DNA of 64,000 bases from Sphingomonadales bacterium 32-65-25 (lineage in GTDB: Bacteria > Pseudomonadota > Alphaproteobacteria > Sphingomonadales > Sphingomonadaceae). Within the stretch, counting starts at the first letter, position 1. Each line of letters opens with the position of its first letter. The stretch spans positions 38,090-102,089 of the forward strand of contig NCEU01000006.1 of assembly GCA_002280855.1 (NCBI GenBank), read 5' to 3'. Below the pieces are notes generated by a model. That model saw only the letters and a program-made list of their open reading frames with translations, ran no database searches and had not been told where the DNA came from. The position numbers and the translations under genes are program-made. Below, piece after piece: positions 1,104 through 20,849 of the stretch.

Positions 1104-1958
1104 ATGATCGAGCTTGATGACCAGCAGAAGGCCGCGCAGGCCTGGTTCCGTTCCCTTCGCGACAGCATCTGGGCGATGCTGGAACAGCTGGAGGATGAAT
1201 CCACCCTTCCCGGTGACGCGGGCCGCTTTGAAAAGCGTGTGTGGAACCGCACCGATCATGCGGGAGGCGATGGCGGCGGCGGCGAGATGGGCATCATGAA
1301 AGGCCGGCTGTTCGAAAAGGCCGGAGTCAACATTTCCACCGTTTATGGCGAGTTCAACCCGGATTTCGCCAAGCAGATCAACGGCGCTGCCGAAGATCCG
1401 CGCTTCTTTGCCACCGGGCTCAGCCTGGTGATCCACCCGGCCAACCCGCTGGTGCCGGCAGTGCACATGAATACGCGCATGCTGGTCACGACGAAACGCT
1501 GGTTTGGCGGCGGGGTCGATCTGAACCCTGCCCTGCCCGATGCGGCTGAAACCGCCGCCTTCCATGCCGCCGTGAAGGACACATGCGATCGGCACAGCCC
1601 GGATTATTATCCGGCGCATTCGAAGTGGGCGGAGGAGTATTTCTGGGTGCCCCACCGCAACCGCCATCGCGGGGTGGGCGGCATCTTCTATGATCACCTG
1701 AACAGCGGCGACTGGGCGGCAGACTTTGCCTACACACAGGACGTGGGCCGCTGCTTCCTGGAAACCTATCCCAAGCTGGTGCGCGCCAAAATGCACCAGG
1801 ATTTCAGCGAAGCGCAGCGCATCGAGCAGCTGAAGTACCGCGGCCTCTATGCCGAGTTCAATCTCGTCTATGATCGCGGCACCACCTTCGGCCTGAAGAC
1901 CGGCGGCAACACCGATGCCATCCTGATGAGCCTGCCGCCGCTCGCGATCTGGGAATGA
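1104..1958 (+). CDS. hemF: Oxygen-dependent coproporphyrinogen III oxidase
   Basis: FEKAGVN, VHMNTR, WFGGG.DL, RGVGGIFYD, YAEFNLVYDRGTTFGL, ILMSLPP. Confidence 0.97.
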   Translation: MIELDDQQKAAQAWFRSLRDSIWAMLEQLEDESTLPGDAGRFEKRVWNRTDHAGGDGGGGEMGIMKGRLFEKAGVNISTVYGEFNPDFAKQINGAAEDPRFFATGLSLVIHPANPLVPAVHMNTRMLVTTKRWFGGGVDLNPALPDAAETAAFHAAVKDTCDRHSPDYYPAHSKWAEEYFWVPHRNRHRGVGGIFYDHLNSGDWAADFAYTQDVGRCFLETYPKLVRAKMHQDFSEAQRIEQLKYRGLYAEFNLVYDRGTTFGLKTGGNTDAILMSLPPLAIWE

Positions 1959-2587
1959 GCGAGCGGCAAGGTGGCGGCAGCATGGTGGCATCGCGGGTAA
2001 TCGCGGTGCCAGCCGGTCAGATTGCCACCATCGTCACTTGCCTCGAAATGACTGCGCCGCCGGCGCCGGCTGTGCCGGTGAAATCAGCGTTGAAGTTGGA
2101 ACGCTGGACGGCGCCCGTGGATCTGGACCGCTATCGCGCCCTGTTCCGCGCTATCGGTCAGCCTTGGTTGTGGCGCGGGCGGCTGGTGATGGATGACGAA
2201 ACGCTGGCCGCGACGTTGAACGCGCCGACGCTTGAGGTGCATGTCGCCACACGGCGGGATGGCACGCCGCAGGGCCTGCTCGAACTGGATTTCAGCGGCG
2301 ACCGCGAATGCGAGCTGGCCTATTTCGGCCTGGTCCCGGAACTGACCGGGCGCGGCCATGGGGCCTGGCTGATGGGCTACGCACTGAAACGGGCGTGGCG
2401 GGAGGGAATCCGCCGCGTCTGGGTGCACACCTGCGATCTCGATCATCCGGGCGCACTGACCTTTTACCAGCGCCACGGTTTCCGTCCTTATGAGCGGCTG
2501 GTCGAAATCTATGCAGATCCACGCGCCAGCGGGCTGTACCCGCCCGAAACGGCGCCGGCGGTGCCTCTGCTGCGCGCCGAGACCTAG
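1955..2587 (+). CDS. GNAT family N-acetyltransferase
   Basis: YFGLVPELTGRGHG acetyl-CoA motif, RVWVHTC.LDHP.AL.FY; ATGA overlap with hemF. Confidence 0.85.
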   Translation: MSERQGGGSMVASRVIAVPAGQIATIVTCLEMTAPPAPAVPVKSALKLERWTAPVDLDRYRALFRAIGQPWLWRGRLVMDDETLAATLNAPTLEVHVATRRDGTPQGLLELDFSGDRECELAYFGLVPELTGRGHGAWLMGYALKRAWREGIRRVWVHTCDLDHPGALTFYQRHGFRPYERLVEIYADPRASGLYPPETAPAVPLLRAET

Positions 2588-5251: not shown

Positions 5252-6532
5252 TCAAGCCGGTGCCCAGCGCACCGGCTCGATCCGCCGCACCACAAGGCCG
5301 AAAATCAGCGTGCCGGTGCCAACGATGGCAGCGGTGACGATGAAGGCGGGGCGATAACCCGCGGCATCGACGATGATGCCGGTCATCACCGGGCCGATCA
5401 CGCCCGACAGATTGCCCAGACTTGTCTGCACCCCCACCCAGCGCCCGGCTGAGGCCGGCCCGGCCATCGTCTGGCCGATGACAAACAACAGATTGGGCAC
5501 CGGGCCATAGCCAAAGCCGGTGATGGCGATGAGGGTGATCAGCGGCAGCCAGCCCTGGATATCGGGCAGCAGCAGCAGGCCGGTCACGCAGGCCGCCACA
5601 GAGCAGAACAGCATCCGCCGCCGCCACTTGGAGCCATCGCCGCCATTGCGGATTGCCCGGTCAATCGCCCAGGCGCCAAGCGTGCCGCCGGCGATCTGGG
5701 CGATGTAGAAGACGGACGTGAGCAGGCTCATGTCGATGATCGAGTAGCCGCGCGCCTTGACCAACCACAGCGGCAACCAGCCAACAATGAAATAGAGCGC
5801 GAAGGTGCCGGCCAGGTGCAGCAGGGTGACGGCCCAGAAGGTCGGCTGGCGCAGCACGGCGGCGAGCGGGGCGGCGTTCTCAGGCGTTTCTTCATGCCGC
5901 CCCTCGCCTTCCTCGATGCCGCGGCGGGCCAGCCACCACGGCACCAGCCACACCAAAGTGGCGAGGCCGAAGACGATGAACATCTCGCGCCAGCCCCACA
6001 ATTGCATCATGGCGCCGCCGGCCAACGTGCCAATCAGCGGCCCCAGCGCGAGGCCGCCGGACAGCGAGATATTGGCCAGCCCGCGTGCGCCTTCCGGCAC
6101 CCGCGCGATGAGTTTCGAACCGCAGGGGAAGGCCACGCCTTCGCCCAGACCCATGAGAAGCCGCAGCAGCAGCAGGCCGGTGACGCCGCCGGCCAGGCCG
6201 GTGCCGACAAAACCCATGCCGATGGTGGCCAGCGCCCAGGTGGCAACGCCCAGCGCCATCAGCAGCCGCACGCTCATGCGGTCGGCGAGCCAGCCGGCGA
6301 GCGCGAGAGCGGGCACATAGGTCCAGTAGAAGCTGGAGACGATGACGCCGTAACGCTCGTTGGTGAGGCCGAACTCATCCTTGATCAACGGCGCCGCCAC
6401 GCTGACAGCACCGCGATCGATGTAGTTCAGCGCAATCGCCGCTCCGATCAGAATGATCGCCCAGCGCAACGGACCTGACAGCATCAAATTCTCCCCGGCT
6501 GGCACAGTGGCGGCGACGGATTGGGCCGTCAA
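5252..6532 (-). CDS. MFS transporter (ACS / hexuronate-like)
   Basis: LNYIDRG, G.LADR motif A, about 12 TM segments; true start may be ATG at 6484. Confidence 0.88.
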   Translation of the reverse strand: MTAQSVAATVPAGENLMLSGPLRWAIILIGAAIALNYIDRGAVSVAAPLIKDEFGLTNERYGVIVSSFYWTYVPALALAGWLADRMSVRLLMALGVATWALATIGMGFVGTGLAGGVTGLLLLRLLMGLGEGVAFPCGSKLIARVPEGARGLANISLSGGLALGPLIGTLAGGAMMQLWGWREMFIVFGLATLVWLVPWWLARRGIEEGEGRHEETPENAAPLAAVLRQPTFWAVTLLHLAGTFALYFIVGWLPLWLVKARGYSIIDMSLLTSVFYIAQIAGGTLGAWAIDRAIRNGGDGSKWRRRMLFCSVAACVTGLLLLPDIQGWLPLITLIAITGFGYGPVPNLLFVIGQTMAGPASAGRWVGVQTSLGNLSGVIGPVMTGIIVDAAGYRPAFIVTAAIVGTGTLIFGLVVRRIEPVRWAPA

Positions 6533-15392: not shown

Positions 15393-16485
15393 AGGACAGG
15401 CTTTGCACAAATCCACATGGCTTCTGGCCGCTGCCATGCTGCTGGCCGGCACGACGCTGCATGCGCAGCCCGTTGAACCTGCTGCGACAAGCCAGGTGCG
15501 CATATTGGCTACCGGCGGCACCATTGCCGGCAAGGGCAATGCGGCGGGCACCAGCTATCGCTCAGGCGCCGTTTCCGTTGACGATCTGATTGCCGCGCTG
15601 CCGGGGGTCGACAAGATTGCCCGGGTTACCGGCGAGCAGATCGCCAACGTGGCGAGCGGCGACATGGACGAAACCATCTGGCGCAGGCTCCATGCCCGCG
15701 CGCTGGCCGCGTTTGCTGATCCTGATGTGGCCGGCGTGGTCGTCACGCATGGCACCGACACGCTGGAGGAAACCGCCTTTCTGCTCAGCCTGATTCTGCC
15801 GCCGACCAAGCCGGTGGTGGTGGTCGGCGCGATGCGGCCCAGCACCGCCGTTTCCGCCGACGGGCCACAAAACATGCTGGATGCGATCCGGGTGGTGACC
15901 TCGCCCGCTTCGGCTGGGCGCGGCGTGATGGTGGTGATGAACGACACGATCTTCGATCCGCGTTCCGTCACCAAATTTGACGTGAACCGCGTCGATGCGT
16001 TCACCGCCCCCAGCCGCGGCCCGATTGGGCAAGTGCTTGGCCTGGCACCGCGCTATTTCGGGCCGCCGCAGCCGCAGCCCGACATGCTGGCTCTGGGCGA
16101 AGCCAAGCTGCCGCGCATTGCGGTGGTTTATGCCTATGCCGGCCAGACCGAAGACGAAGTGCGCGACATCGTGCGCAATGCCGATGGCGTGATTGTGGCC
16201 GGTGTTGGCGCCGGCGGCGTTTCCAGCGGCGCCCGCAAGGCGCTGCGGGCGCTGGCGGAAAAGAAGATTCCGATGGTCACCACGCCGCGCCAAGGCCACG
16301 GCGACATCCGGCGTTCGGAACCGACGCCAGCAGCGAATTCGGATGATGATGATCGGGTGCCGACGATCGGCGGCCGCGAACTGACACCGGCCAAGGCGCG
16401 TATCCTGCTGATGCTGGCCCTGCAGCAGCGGCGGACATTCGCCGAACTGCAGGCGATCTTCGACCGGGCCGGCACAACGAACTAA
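15385..16485 (+). CDS. Secreted type II L-asparaginase/glutaminase
   Basis: Signal peptide, ATGGTIAG, HGTDTLEET, GAMRP, PAKARILLMLAL; start overlaps the MerR stop. Confidence 0.93.
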   Translation: MGEGQALHKSTWLLAAAMLLAGTTLHAQPVEPAATSQVRILATGGTIAGKGNAAGTSYRSGAVSVDDLIAALPGVDKIARVTGEQIANVASGDMDETIWRRLHARALAAFADPDVAGVVVTHGTDTLEETAFLLSLILPPTKPVVVVGAMRPSTAVSADGPQNMLDAIRVVTSPASAGRGVMVVMNDTIFDPRSVTKFDVNRVDAFTAPSRGPIGQVLGLAPRYFGPPQPQPDMLALGEAKLPRIAVVYAYAGQTEDEVRDIVRNADGVIVAGVGAGGVSSGARKALRALAEKKIPMVTTPRQGHGDIRRSEPTPAANSDDDDRVPTIGGRELTPAKARILLMLALQQRRTFAELQAIFDRAGTTN

Positions 16486-17651
16486 AAGCCCGCGGATACG
16501 GTCAGCACCGGCCCACTGCCCGGCGCAGCATTGCCGCCCACGCGTTGCCGCCAATCAGCTTCGATGCGGATACCCTTCACGCTGGCGCTGAGTGAGGGGC
16601 CGACATCCACGCGCCAGACATCGGGCGTACCCGTCTGCACGCTGGCCCAGGTGGCGGCGTTCAGCGTTGCCGGGCCAAACCGTACGATGCGGGCGCGCGC
16701 CTGGCCGCCGGCATAGACCTGGCCTGTGTCGAGCACGCCGGCTTCGCCATAGGCTTCCAGCCGTTGCCCCAAAGGCTTCAACCGTGCACCGGCAGCCAGG
16801 CGAGCCGTGAAGGCACCTTGCGTCGCCGCACCCAGCGGAATCAGGCGCTCGACTGAAAGTGACACGCCCGGCAGCAGCGTCTGCCGCAACCCAAGTGCCA
16901 GTTGTGCGGTCTCACCGCGCACGCCCTGTGGATCGGCAGCGACATTGGTCCGCGCCACCAGTGCCAGCGGCCGGCGCGCATAGGGATCGGTGACAAAGGC
17001 GATACTGCCCCCCACCTGCCCACCGCCCAGCACCGGCGACGCAGCAAAGCCGGGCAATCCATTGCCCGGCTGATTTGGCAGCGGCCCGCCATCACGCAGC
17101 AGGGCAAAGCCACCCAACTGCCAACGCCGGCCCAGCGCGGCACGATCCGCCAGCCATTGGCGATTGCCCGGCTGCAGGGCCAGCGCCGCATCGAACAAAG
17201 CGGCGGCCTGGCGGCGCTGACCGGCGCGCAGCCGGTCGTAGGCCGCGTTTGCCAGGGTGAAGGCCGGATCGAGTGGCGGCACGCTGGCAGGCGGAACAGC
17301 GAGTAGCGCTGAGGACGGTGCTGGCGGCGGCAGTGGCGCGGGCTGCGGTGTCCGGCTAGCCGCTGGCAGGGATTGGCTGGCAGCGAGTATCAACGGCGCA
17401 GGCAGCGCCAGCAAAGGCGGCGGCGGCGCCGACCGGTGCAACGGTGCCATTACGGGGCCATCCGGCAGATTCCCCCTGCTCGGAACGGGCATGCGGGGCG
17501 GCTTTGCCCGGGCTGTACCCGTCGCCAGCCGTGCCAGCGCCTGCAGATCGTGCTGCATCGCCGGCAGCCGCATGCCGATCCACAGTGCCAGCAGCAGCCC
17601 CAGCCCGGTGAAGGCCCGCAGCGGCCGGCCAGTCAGGCCCGCAGCCTTCAT
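16482..17651 (-). CDS. Hypothetical NfrA-like export protein (anchor, Pro-rich linker, TPR-like pair, probable beta-barrel)
   Basis: Hydrophobic N-terminus, AAALFDAALALQPGN TPR-like segment, alternating beta-strand pattern, C-terminal LTVSAGF; ATGA overlap with the upstream glycosyltransferase. Confidence 0.65.
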   Translation of the reverse strand: MKAAGLTGRPLRAFTGLGLLLALWIGMRLPAMQHDLQALARLATGTARAKPPRMPVPSRGNLPDGPVMAPLHRSAPPPPLLALPAPLILAASQSLPAASRTPQPAPLPPPAPSSALLAVPPASVPPLDPAFTLANAAYDRLRAGQRRQAAALFDAALALQPGNRQWLADRAALGRRWQLGGFALLRDGGPLPNQPGNGLPGFAASPVLGGGQVGGSIAFVTDPYARRPLALVARTNVAADPQGVRGETAQLALGLRQTLLPGVSLSVERLIPLGAATQGAFTARLAAGARLKPLGQRLEAYGEAGVLDTGQVYAGGQARARIVRFGPATLNAATWASVQTGTPDVWRVDVGPSLSASVKGIRIEADWRQRVGGNAAPGSGPVLTVSAGF

Positions 17652-19018
17652 GGGGAAAAGCCGGGGAAACGGTGGATCGTCTTGTCCCACGCCAGGCGGC
17701 GGCCTGTTCGCACCGCCTGGGCATAGCGCGACAGCGCGCGCAGTGCCGCCATGGCGTTGATGAAATTGCCGATCAGCGCGCGTGGCGGCGTCAATATCGC
17801 TTGGTTCAGGTCATGCACGCGCAAGGTGAACAGCGCCCGCACCAGCAGCCGCCAGCACAGCAGGGTCCAGTTCAGCCACAGCAGCGCCCGCGTGACGTCG
17901 CCCGCCACTGGCGGCATCCGCGCCGCCGCTGGCAACGCCAGCCGCAGCAGGCTATCGATGCCGAGCAGCAGGGCGATGCCATAAGCAGCCAGCGTCAGCA
18001 GCGCCATCAACGGCGCCTTACGATCGCGCAGCAGCATCCAGCGGTTGACCAGCCCACCGCGCCACCCGATCCGATCCCAGCCGGCCAGCGCGATGCCAGT
18101 GAGCCAGCGCGCTTTCTGCCGCACGGCCGCATCAAAGCTGGCCGGAAAATGCTCCCGCGTTGCCACCGGCTGGCCATCGGCGTTCACCCACACCAGCCGA
18201 CCACGCCCGCCAAGTGCGTGAACATGTTGGCCCAGTTCATAATCCTCGGTCAGGCTGGCGGCATCAAAGGGGGCGCCATCGCGGGCATCGGCAATGCGGC
18301 CCACCATGGCCCGATCGATGGCAACCCCCACGCCGGCCGCCGGCACCGCCGCGTCCAGCCACTGCCGCACCAGCAGATCCTTGGCATGCGCCTCTGCAAA
18401 TTCATCGATATAATGGCCGGAAATCAACGGGCTGGCAGCATCAGGCAAAGGCAGCACCGGCAATTGCACCATGGCATATTCCGGCAAATGGGCTGCAAAC
18501 ACTGCCAGTTCGCAGGCGTGCACCAGATCTTCGGCATCATGCAGCACCATGGCCGCAAACGCCCGGCCGCTGGCTGCCTCCTCTGCCAGAACCGCCCGCC
18601 ACAGGCTGTTCAGGCAATCGGCCTTGGTGGTGGGGCCAGGCGTGGCGCCAATCGCTACGTGCAGGCGCGCATCGTCCAGCGCCGCCACCGCCGCCTGACC
18701 TTTCGGATCATTGGGATAAAGGCCAACGAACACGGCATAATCCGGCCAGTCCAGCGTGGCCAGCAGGCGCTGCAACATGGCACCGATGACCGCCGATTCA
18801 TCCCAGGCCGGGATCAGGATGGCAAAGCGCGCTGACGGCGGTGCGGGCGGCAGCGGTTGCGCCAGAGGCTGGGGCGCACGCTGGTGGCGCGGCATCATCA
18901 GCCACAGCACATCGATGGCGAGATCATCCAGGCCGTTGATGGCCACCAGCAGCGCTACCAGCAACAAGGCTTCGGCCAGCGCGACATGCCACAGGGCCAG
19001 CAATTCAGGCAGCATCAT
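17648..19018 (-). CDS. NfrB-like GT2 glycosyltransferase (polysaccharide synthase)
   Basis: IPAWDES.VI, GPTTKADCLN, LHDAED, SLTEDYELG, RQKARW, flanking TM helices. Confidence 0.88.
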   Translation of the reverse strand: MMLPELLALWHVALAEALLLVALLVAINGLDDLAIDVLWLMMPRHQRAPQPLAQPLPPAPPSARFAILIPAWDESAVIGAMLQRLLATLDWPDYAVFVGLYPNDPKGQAAVAALDDARLHVAIGATPGPTTKADCLNSLWRAVLAEEAASGRAFAAMVLHDAEDLVHACELAVFAAHLPEYAMVQLPVLPLPDAASPLISGHYIDEFAEAHAKDLLVRQWLDAAVPAAGVGVAIDRAMVGRIADARDGAPFDAASLTEDYELGQHVHALGGRGRLVWVNADGQPVATREHFPASFDAAVRQKARWLTGIALAGWDRIGWRGGLVNRWMLLRDRKAPLMALLTLAAYGIALLLGIDSLLRLALPAAARMPPVAGDVTRALLWLNWTLLCWRLLVRALFTLRVHDLNQAILTPPRALIGNFINAMAALRALSRYAQAVRTGRRLAWDKTIHRFPGFSP

Positions 19019-19040
19019 GGTGGCAAGTTCTTGAAGGGGT

Positions 19041-19115
19041 GGATGCCCCGGCCTTCACCATAATCTGCGCACGGGGAGGGCCGTTTGCAGGTGGATTCAG
19101 CAGACCGGGGCATCC
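19041..19115. other. Long inverted repeat / candidate structured leader RNA upstream of the nfrB-like gene
   Basis: GGATGCCCCGG (19041-19051) and CCGGGGCATCC (19105-19115), with inner TCTGC/GCAGA pairing. Confidence 0.55.
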
Positions 19116-19141
19116 TCGGCAGGAAAGCGACAGACGCAGGG

Positions 19142-19849
19142 TCAAAACGCCTGTTCATTCTCCCGGCCGATCGGGGGCGGCGACAGCACCGGCCGGGCAA
19201 TCGCCCAGGCCGCGCGCAGGCGCTGCAAGGTGGTCTCGTCAATATGGATCCGCAGCGCGGCGACGGCATTCACGCCCTCTCCGTGCGGCAGGCCCAGTGG
19301 TTCAGCATCCCAGCCGATGGACAGCAGACTCGGCAACCACGGCAGATGTGTGACCATGATATAATATTGAATTCTATTTGCAAGTGCATGTTCTTGCAGG
19401 GCAATTGCCAATTGTCTGCGCACCTGCAGCGCCTCAGCGCGTGTCAGGCCGGGCGCGGTGACCAGACGGGTGATCTCCCACACATCGGGGCCCACCGGGA
19501 CACCATCGGCACACAGATGCGCGAACTTGTCGCCCAGCAGGTGCGCGCCGGTGGAGGGCAACAGCCGCACCGATCCCAGATGGCGGCCGGTTTCGGGTTG
19601 ATGAACGATCAGATAGAGCGTGTCTTCATCATCATATTCGTCCAGCTCGTGCAGACCATCGGGCGATTGCAGATCCCAGCCCAGCCGGTCCATCAGCACG
19701 ATCTTGCGATCCTTCAGCATGGCAGAACGCAGGGCGGCATGGAGCATTCCCCGGCTGGACAAGGCCTCCGCCTCGCCCTGTGCGTCGCGCCACAGGCCGG
19801 GAATGGCCTGAATATCGTGGCTGGTGCCTGTTGTGGCTGTGCCGAACAT
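19142..19849 (-). CDS. LuxI-family acyl-homoserine-lactone synthase homolog
   Basis: DRK.V..DRLGWD, ELDEYDD, SVRLLPS, WEITR, LGLP; SD AGGA before ATG 19849. Confidence 0.85.
   Translation of the reverse strand: MFGTATTGTSHDIQAIPGLWRDAQGEAEALSSRGMLHAALRSAMLKDRKIVLMDRLGWDLQSPDGLHELDEYDDEDTLYLIVHQPETGRHLGSVRLLPSTGAHLLGDKFAHLCADGVPVGPDVWEITRLVTAPGLTRAEALQVRRQLAIALQEHALANRIQYYIMVTHLPWLPSLLSIGWDAEPLGLPHGEGVNAVAALRIHIDETTLQRLRAAWAIARPVLSPPPIGRENEQAF
19356..19383 (-). promoter_or_regulatory. Candidate internal sigma70 promoter inside the luxI homolog
   Basis: TTGCAA-N16-TATCAT on the minus strand within a very AT-rich patch. Confidence 0.35.
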
Positions 19850-19925
19850 CGCCTGCTTCCTGATGGGGTTCGCAAGCGTTGTGGCAATGGTTGACGCGGG
19901 CGCGCCATATCCCTGACAAGGGGCA

Positions 19926-20849
19926 ATGACTCATGGCGGCGAACAGCAATATCTTTCCCTGATGGACCGTGTGTGGCGGACCGGCGCCATGCGCGGCGAC
20001 CGCACCGGCACCGGCACCCGCGCCCTTTTCGGCGAGACGCTGAAATTCGATCTTTCCGATGGCACGGTGCCGCTGCTCACCACCAAGCGCGTCTATTGGA
20101 AATCGGCCATCAAGGAACTGATCTGGTTCCTGAATGGCGAATCGAACATCCGCCCTTTGGTGGCACAGGGCGTGCATATCTGGACGGACTGGCCGCTGGA
20201 TGCCTATCGCAAGGCCACCGGCGAAGCGATCAGCCGCGATGATTTCGAAGCGCGGATCATTGCCGATGATGATTTTGCCGCGAAGTGGGGTGATCTGGGG
20301 CCGGTGTACGGTGTGCAGTGGCGGCGCTGGCCGCGTTATGCCGCCAATGAAGACGGCAGTTTCCGCGCCGACACGCCGTTCGACCAGATGACCGAGCTGG
20401 TCCACGGCCTTAAAGCTAACCCCGCCAGCCGCCGCCACATCTTCACCGGCTGGAACGTGCCCGAACTGCACCGCATGGCACTGCCGCCCTGCCACATGAC
20501 CTATCAATATTTCGTCGCTGATGGCCGTCTATCCGGCATCCTCTATCAGCGCAGTTGCGATCTGGGGCTGGGCTTTCCGTTCAATATCTTTGAAGCTGCC
20601 GTGCTGATCCGCATGCTGGCGCAGCAGTGCGGGCTGGAACCGGGGGTGCTCACCTGGATGGGGGCGGATTGTCACCTCTATTCCAACCACGAGCATCTGG
20701 TGACGGAGCAGCTTTCGCGCACGCCCCGCCCCTTCCCGCGTATGGACTTCGCGCGACAGCCGGAGGATCTGTTCTCCTATCGGCTGGAGGACTTCCTGAT
20801 CACCGGCTACGACCCGCATCCGCACATCGCAGCGCCGGTGGCGGTATGA
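19926..20849 (+). CDS. thyA: Thymidylate synthase
   Basis: DRTGTGT, PLLTTKRV, LGPVYGVQWR, MALPPCH, YQRSCD..LG.PFN, HLYSNH. Confidence 0.98.
   Translation: MTHGGEQQYLSLMDRVWRTGAMRGDRTGTGTRALFGETLKFDLSDGTVPLLTTKRVYWKSAIKELIWFLNGESNIRPLVAQGVHIWTDWPLDAYRKATGEAISRDDFEARIIADDDFAAKWGDLGPVYGVQWRRWPRYAANEDGSFRADTPFDQMTELVHGLKANPASRRHIFTGWNVPELHRMALPPCHMTYQYFVADGRLSGILYQRSCDLGLGFPFNIFEAAVLIRMLAQQCGLEPGVLTWMGADCHLYSNHEHLVTEQLSRTPRPFPRMDFARQPEDLFSYRLEDFLITGYDPHPHIAAPVAV

Follow-up and report, generated by a model that had tools for sequence, protein, structure and literature searches.

The 64,000-nucleotide stretch of Sphingomonadales bacterium 32-65-25 analyzed here (the window) carries on its minus strand a gene for a LuxI-family acyl-homoserine lactone (AHL) synthase, followed by a 123-nt spacer, an NfrB-like family-2 glycosyltransferase (GT) gene and an overlapping nfrA-like open reading frame (ORF), with thyA as the divergent neighbor. 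Judging from named homologues, the host is a Sandarakinorhabdus near S. limnophila, and the window luxI product shares 97% identity with its counterpart in S. limnophila DSM 17366. The reading favored here, to which we give a probability of roughly 0.6, is that this luxI and a luxR on another contig form a functional split pair, and that transcription from a lux box upstream of luxI reads through a leader RNA into the Nfr-type glycan operon. The whole is likely to be a basically ordinary quorum-sensing system, with a quorum-sensing-coupled Nfr-type polysaccharide as its output. The novelty lies in reconstructing the split pair together with its box, in the proposed transcriptional merging of luxI with the structured leader of an nfrB operon lacking MshEN, and in the likely coenzyme A (CoA)-type chemistry of the synthase.

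By sequence and fold, the window ORF is a genuine, divergent LuxI-family synthase. Its product scored 61.2 bits on the Pfam family Autoind_synth (PF00765; cut-off 24), residues 39–210 aligning to profile positions 9–182 of 183. The NCBIfam TraI models scored 42–47 bits against cut-offs of 250–292, and in sequence terms the protein is no TraI equivalog. A phmmer search of PDB sequences returned RpaI first (E 2e-18), and then TofI, BjaI, LasI and MesI. When the AlphaFold2 model of the protein (pLDDT 84.7, pTM 0.82) was compared with known structures by Foldseek, the top 12 matches were all AHL synthases, with BjaI the best (TM 0.83, rmsd 2.1 Å over 202 columns) and RpaI the next, the TM scores of these two ranging from 0.80 to 0.83. 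In an alignment of 92 relatives, R48, D70, D73, R95, E125 and R128 were found to be invariant, and W58 and E68 almost invariant; an earlier reading of the sequence (the initial annotation) had rightly recognized this LuxI core. The S-adenosylmethionine (SAM)/catalytic signature set (Arg, Phe, Trp, Glu/Asp, Asp, Asp, Arg, Glu, Arg) is present except that Phe is Leu52, which sits at the position of F30 (LasI chain index). That two normally conserved Phe residues are Leu had also been pointed out, and the enzyme had been called atypical. Both substitutions were observed, and the description holds only mildly: L52 is confined to the Sandarakinorhabdus sub-clade and to three Rhizomicrobium copies linked to luxR (the column is Tyr in RpaI), but L129, directly after the E..R motif, is the subfamily norm (62 of the 92 sequences; Ile in RpaI and Tyr in BjaI). 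The window LuxI clade is nested among canonical luxR-luxI pairs in the tree, and orthologues with an open frame and 49 to 99% identity were found in ~40 genomes. The enzyme is predicted to form an AHL from SAM and an acyl thioester.

The model places ~20 residues before the first strand, and the longer N-terminus that had been noticed (about 25–30 aa) is real. Among 11 orthologues, pairwise differences in luxI codons 1–24 numbered 275, 181 and 560 at the first, second and third codon positions, respectively, and all columns of the 45 nt upstream of luxI were observed to vary. By this third-position excess next to a freely varying upstream segment, the extension is translated; the codon pattern shows purifying selection acting even on it. 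A start at Met35 was rejected, as this residue is unconserved and codons 1–24 are under coding constraint.

Which acyl donor would such an enzyme use? Basic residues in the docking helix for acyl carrier protein (ACP), LasI 146–173, mark ACP-using synthases (Christensen et al., 2014, PMC4234381). In the window LuxI, Lys and Arg are absent from the equivalent segment, compared with five in LasI, five in TofI, one in BjaI and three in RpaI, and the count is also zero in 38 of 40 GT-linked relatives. In a tree with two ACP-type references, LuxI groups with RpaI and BjaI, without being their sister, apart from TofI and LasI (SH-aLRT 96). Because the docking helix lacks Lys and Arg, and because the enzyme is close to BjaI, RpaI and MesI in sequence and fold, an acyl-CoA donor is favored, and LuxI probably uses acyl-CoA rather than acyl-ACP. 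With a probable acyl-CoA donor and nearest solved relatives that use acyl-CoA, the signal may, by analogy, be an aryl- or branched-acyl-homoserine lactone (HSL).

No luxR was found in the window, as had been stated at the outset, or on the contig to which it belongs (C6). The search of the host genome that had been suggested yielded one LuxI and a single strong, full LuxR, the latter on another contig beside msrA (G000:C7:301677-302435). The synthase, described initially as an orphan, is thus one within the 64 kb but not at the level of the genome. The C7 LuxR, of 254 aa, comprises an Autoind_bind domain (PF03472, 99–100 bits) and a GerE helix-turn-helix (HTH) domain, and its AHL head-group pocket is intact, with the contacts W60, D73, P74, W88, G113 and S129 (LasR numbering) retained; Tyr64 is aliphatic, as it is throughout the receptor subfamily.

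The history of the pair was followed by comparing gene order at 75 reference-genome loci. The closest LuxI homologues (37–49% identity), from Caulobacteraceae, Phenylobacterium, Rhizomicrobium and other sphingomonads, are encoded directly behind a luxR (38–48% identity to the C7 LuxR). Two Sphingomonadales metagenome-assembled genomes (L104 and L108) have thyA divergent from a luxR (58–60% identity to the C7 LuxR) that is followed by luxI (43–45%). In 41 loci from Sandarakinorhabdus, Polymorphobacter, Glacieibacterium and Sandaracinobacter, thyA is instead divergent from luxI, which is followed by the GT and nfrA-like genes, without luxR; the order is incomplete only at one locus (L075) and at two contig ends, so that the conserved synteny proposed earlier as a check was found nearly throughout the family. 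Because L104, L108 and the outgroups retain the pair, and because the tree nests the window clade among luxR-linked synthases, luxR and luxI appear to have been adjacent ancestrally, and the simplest history consistent with the sequences is that luxR departed from a thyA-luxR-luxI locus.

The two genes are also lost together. A LuxR orthologue was found in 17 of the 18 luxI-bearing genomes of the genus (16 without a stop codon seen, and a pseudogene in G003), the single genome without one being only 81% complete, and no intact orthologue was found in the seven genomes of the genus that lack luxI. On a thyA tree, the losses are spread over at least three places. A search for luxI remnants in the thyA-GT gaps of luxI-lacking genomes gave none at E 1e-5, save a deletion scar in G001 (L127, G001:C1:236000-250000, about 5281-5901). 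This deletion runs between luxI codon ~45 and nfrA codon ~228 and joins the first ~45 luxI codons to the last ~175 nfrA-like codons; the leader and GT are gone, and the luxR of this genome (L128) is a pseudogene with many frameshifts plus a stop. In S. limnophila DSM 17366 (G003; L129 G003:C7:108500-113000, L007/L046), luxR carries Q110->TAG and a 19-aa in-frame deletion, the GT gene has a +1 frameshift (extra C), and luxI is intact; given these lesions, signal reception and the glycan have probably both been lost in the type strain. The system is intact in, for example, Sandarakinorhabdus sp. AAP62 and S. cyanobacteriorum TH057. As the C7 LuxR shares both the ancestry and the presence/absence pattern of the synthase, luxI and the C7 luxR are, on comparative sequence grounds, a split pair and not a luxI solo.

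Some further observations concern luxR and its surroundings. In each of 12 loci examined (L025-L036), the relocated luxR and msrA are divergent, and in several of these genomes a GCGTCGCA...TGCGACGC inverted repeat lies ~60–90 nt upstream of it. The alignment of this upstream region contained no lux-box-like element, only the GCGTCGCA...TGCGACGC hairpin in some genomes. The host genome also encodes a second LuxR-type protein of 256 aa (L002, G000:C9:50695-53988, ORF 1282-2052 (+)), followed by a gene for a secreted 195-aa protein. Its autoinducer-domain match (20.8 bits) is below the cut-off, and it is probably not an AHL receptor.

Nearly all outgroup luxR-luxI spacers hold an inverted repeat, mostly (C/T)ATCCCC-N6-GGGGAAT, with TACCCC-N6-GGGGTA in the sphingomonad branch. 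The initial annotation had reported no obvious lux box, but a candidate homologous to these outgroup boxes, TTGCCCCTTGTCAGGGATATGG, was found upstream of the window luxI. In a manual alignment, 17 of its 22 positions agree with the L104 box, and its center lies ~67 nt 5' of the luxI ATG, a distance within the outgroup range. On the opposite strand, it overlaps the ribosome-binding site (RBS) of thyA and abuts the thyA start codon. Across 11 clade-A loci, the box is invariant except at two spacer positions, and the rest of the 76-nt spacer varies freely; in four genomes lacking both luxI and luxR, it is kept in one and degenerating in three. The pattern TRCCCCN6RGGRTA has one match in the window and one in the 3.04-Mb genome, the luxI site, versus ~5 expected by base composition; the luxI site helped to define the pattern, and the informative part is that there are no other sites. 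A loose palindrome scan of the genome (TACCCC-N6-GGGGTA, at least 10 of 12) gave 18 matches, not above chance, and was uninformative. With the tighter pattern matching at the luxI site only, no wider regulon could be defined. The C7 LuxR would be expected to bind at the candidate box. Separately, a LuxR bound there could also influence thyA-folA expression, because the box overlaps the thyA RBS and touches the start codon.

The luxI-GT spacer is conserved more strongly than the flanking genes and folds as a two-domain RNA. The 5' domain (P1-P2-P3) overlaps the last 11 luxI codons, and its invariant loop UUUUGACCCUG holds the luxI stop; the 3' domain is a long stem plus a small hairpin cap with an anti-Shine-Dalgarno-like CCCUCC loop. 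In a 27-sequence alignment, 20 of 35 pairs showed compensatory changes; the covariance model match was 125 bits and the z-score of the minimum free energy (MFE) was −3.8. The leader is a candidate new cis-regulatory RNA, and an Rfam scan of positions 18800–20100 at E<=10 returned no leader-related family and no c-di-GMP riboswitch. The covariance model found one leader per genome, always directly upstream of GT, in 6 of 301 genomes across the order (4 of 86 genera), all of the Sphingosinicellaceae type. Among the family loci retrieved, it is present in all except L080, with or without luxI. In all 37 loci with a locatable loop motif, the luxI stop lies within the leader (20 stops coincide with the loop UGA, 15 lie 11 nt upstream and 2 are at P1). 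Since the 5' strand of the leader is luxI coding sequence, a complete leader would have to be transcribed from within or upstream of luxI. This overlap with a covarying RNA outside Rfam is the most unusual feature of the locus and merits a study of its own.

The nfrB- and nfrA-like pair that had been seen next on the same strand is indeed there, with a GT that lacks the C-terminal half of NfrB. The GT scored 469.6 bits against NCBIfam NF011307 (PRK14716.1-5; cut-off 431) and 334 bits against the NfrB equivalog NF008411 (cut-off 1170; positions 2–475 of 723 aligned), the latter score being low because of the absent C-terminal half. The nfrA-like ORF is always next after GT in relatives; its product gave only weak TPR matches and no Pfam NfrA_C match, and showed local similarity (E 2e-5) to the homologue in genome G032, Pfam NfrA_C scoring 104 bits in G032 and 52 in G038. 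From luxI to the end of the operon, nothing resembling a terminator was detected. Because the luxI frame ends inside the leader and no terminator follows, read-through from luxI into the operon would be expected.

The neighborhood recurs elsewhere. G032 (L042, G032:C24:1-10000) has luxI followed by genes for a WecB-type UDP-GlcNAc 2-epimerase, an NfrB-like protein and an NfrA_C protein, and G038 (L043, G038:C458:9000-21000) has an nfrB-like gene followed by a TPR/NfrA_C gene, luxR, luxI and a P450 gene. The LuxIs of these two genomes, which belong to other sphingomonad families, are on separate tree branches, and by this placement the luxI-nfrB linkage arose independently in two further sphingomonad lineages. 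Palindromes were sought upstream of luxI or GT in both genomes, and none was recognizable. The features of the window locus are collected in Table 1.

Table 1. Features at the luxI locus, in window positions.
Feature	Position	Strand	Basis and remarks
luxI-family AHL synthase gene, 235 aa	19142..19849	−	PF00765, PDB phmmer, AlphaFold2 model, key residues; stop codon TGA at 19142-19144; N-terminal extension ~20 aa
Candidate lux box TTGCCCCTTGTCAGGGATATGG, core CCCC-N6-GGGA	19905..19926	−	Homology to outgroup luxR-luxI boxes
Structured leader RNA of the nfrB-like operon	19035..19176	−	Covariation, covariance model match, fold z-score
NfrB-like family-2 GT, 456 aa, without MshEN c-di-GMP module	17648..19018	−	PF13641/PF13632, NCBIfam NF011307
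NfrA-like outer-membrane partner, 402 aa as listed, 43-nt overlap with GT	16482..17690	−	Synteny, weak TPR matches, local similarity to G032 homologue
Sigma-70-like TTGCAA-16-TATCAT within luxI, candidate internal promoter for leader/GT	19356..19383	−	Consensus scan, GC profile, orthologue alignment
thyA, divergent neighbor, start codon touching the lux box	19926..20849	+	PF00303 338 bits; synteny

In the favored reading, LuxI would make a homoserine-lactone signal, probably from acyl-CoA, and the signal-bound C7 LuxR would bind the candidate box and activate luxI. Transcripts from the lux box would then run past luxI and through the leader into the genes for the GT and its outer-membrane partner, and the output of the Nfr-type surface glycan would thereby be coupled to cell density; the leader RNA would be a second checkpoint on the glycan operon. 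A signal read by a distant LuxR and tied to glycan production had been one of the two possibilities raised in the initial annotation, and it fits the unlinked LuxR, the shared origin of the pair, its co-loss, the box, the absence of a terminator and the independent linkages.

Several observations weigh against this reading. Placing LuxI with the CoA-type enzymes rests on few ACP-type references, and F30 (LasI index) is replaced by Leu. The half-site GGGA of the window box is degenerate, a genome without luxI and luxR (L038) retains a nearly intact box, and the element may serve thyA instead, because it overlaps the thyA RBS. The independent contrasts for the co-loss of luxI and luxR number 2–3 that are usable, all concordant and too few for significance. 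Several relatives have the GT operon and leader but no luxI or luxR; quorum sensing is therefore dispensable for the operon, and luxI could lie next to it through inherited synteny. From this distribution, the leader and operon are older than, and independent of, luxI. Finally, a 60-nt patch of 38% GC in the 65% GC luxI gene creates the site TTGCAA-16-TATCAT, from which the operon could be driven without the lux box. The site occurs in the S. limnophila lineage only, other orthologues being GC-rich, and is possibly a newly evolved internal promoter.

The alternative that draws most on these points is that LuxI and the unlinked LuxR do work as a pair, but that the nfrB-like operon is only an inherited neighbor with its own promoter and leader. 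The core arrangement of thyA divergent from leader, GT and nfrA does occur without luxI; thyA, folA and ribF are equally syntenic; a promoter-like site lies inside luxI; and one ancestral insertion suffices for the whole family. However, the 5' strand of the leader is within the luxI ORF in all loci, so that leader transcripts would have to start in or upstream of luxI, and no terminator was found. Two further luxI-nfrB linkages are independent of this one, luxR and GT are both inactivated in DSM 17366, and the genome has no second match to the box pattern, leaving the luxI locus as the sole candidate target of that type. We regard the inherited-neighbor explanation as rather unlikely, while taking it seriously.

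The other possibility raised initially was that the enzyme acylates something else. A LuxI-fold acyltransferase could act on the Nfr-type glycan or on another acceptor, in the manner of FeeM-type N-acyl amino acid synthases or exosortase-associated acyltransferases, and the weak match to TIGR03694, the NCBIfam exosortase-associated acyltransferase model (17 bits, E 0.003), the adjoining glycan operon, the N-terminal extension and the F-to-L change are compatible with this. Yet the SAM and lactonization residues are strictly conserved across relatives, FeeM and other GNATs score far below LuxI enzymes in both sequence and fold, and the protein is nested among luxR-linked synthases. Its presence tracks LuxR and not GT, and the persistence of the leader and operon without luxI argues against LuxI as a glycan-modifying enzyme. 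This explanation is disfavored and appears very improbable. Equally hard to credit is that luxI is a decaying relic, its frame open by chance after luxR departed, as might be suggested by the decay of the system in the relatives G001 and G003 and by the replacement of F30 by Leu, given an open, conserved frame with catalytic residues kept in ~40 genomes, a codon-position bias indicative of purifying selection that includes the N-terminal extension, and a LuxR orthologue without a stop codon in 16 of 18 luxI-bearing genomes.

A bolder form of the favored reading is that the signal is an acyl-CoA-derived aryl- or branched-acyl-HSL, new to sphingomonads, that the luxI transcript is physically joined to a new class of structured leader RNA, and that cell density, through LuxR at a single box, and an input sensed by the leader jointly gate the Nfr-type glycan. 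Translation of luxI, ending in the invariant loop of the leader, could itself remodel the leader fold. We consider this combination doubtful. If true, it would give a gated glycan of a type known elsewhere as a phage receptor.

How does this locus compare with known systems? No quorum-sensing study of Sandarakinorhabdus was found in a literature search, and the locus offers a testable circuit for freshwater phototrophs, consisting of a synthase, a relocated receptor, a candidate box and one prime output operon. The best sequence (E 2e-18 and 9e-16) and fold matches of the window LuxI are the acyl-CoA-dependent enzymes BjaI, RpaI and MesI of Bradyrhizobium, Rhodopseudomonas and Mesorhizobium (PDB 5w8a, 6wn0 and 6wns), with which it has in common the WLP motif and a docking helix without the basic residues. 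Unlike these enzymes, to which it is only 26–28% identical, the window LuxI has ~20 extra N-terminal residues and Leu for Phe/Tyr after the first Arg, and its gene is without an adjoining receptor gene. The class of acyl-CoA-derived signals is small and of chemical interest.

SscI of Ruegeria sp. KLH11 is reportedly a luxI solo. A luxI without an adjacent luxR is already known in sphingomonads and roseobacters, and luxI solos have been described in Sphingobium sp. KK2 and S. chinhatense IP26 (Gan et al., 2015, PMC4288048). The window luxI resembles such solos in having the signature residues and no luxR beside it. It differs in that the genome contains exactly one matching LuxR, and in that its position is family-wide and overlaps a leader RNA. 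Thus, a luxI that looks orphan locally can be half of a split pair, and its partner and box can both be traced through outgroup synteny. In comparison with the canonical LuxR/LuxI circuit, the homologue of the box upstream of luxI is present, whereas the adjacency of luxR is absent and kept only in the outgroups.

E. coli NfrB/NfrA are a c-di-GMP-activated synthase of a ManNAc polymer and its exporter, which produce the phage N4 receptor glycan (PMC8669469, PMC8669472). The window operon likewise has an NfrB-type GT2 followed by a TPR/barrel outer-membrane partner, and the G032 operon includes a WecB-type epimerase. In contrast to the E. coli pair, the window GT is without MshEN, the partner falls far short of NfrA in length and is below the Pfam NfrA_C threshold, and a structured leader RNA and luxI lie upstream. 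Quorum-sensing control of exopolysaccharides (EPS) is itself classical, as in EsaI/EsaR and stewartan in Pantoea stewartii and SinI/ExpR and EPS II in Sinorhizobium meliloti. The window system is like these in being an AHL circuit with a polysaccharide as the proposed output. The difference is that the regulators EsaR and ExpR act on separate EPS promoters, whereas the glycan operon in the window is proposed to be reached by read-through from luxI via the leader.

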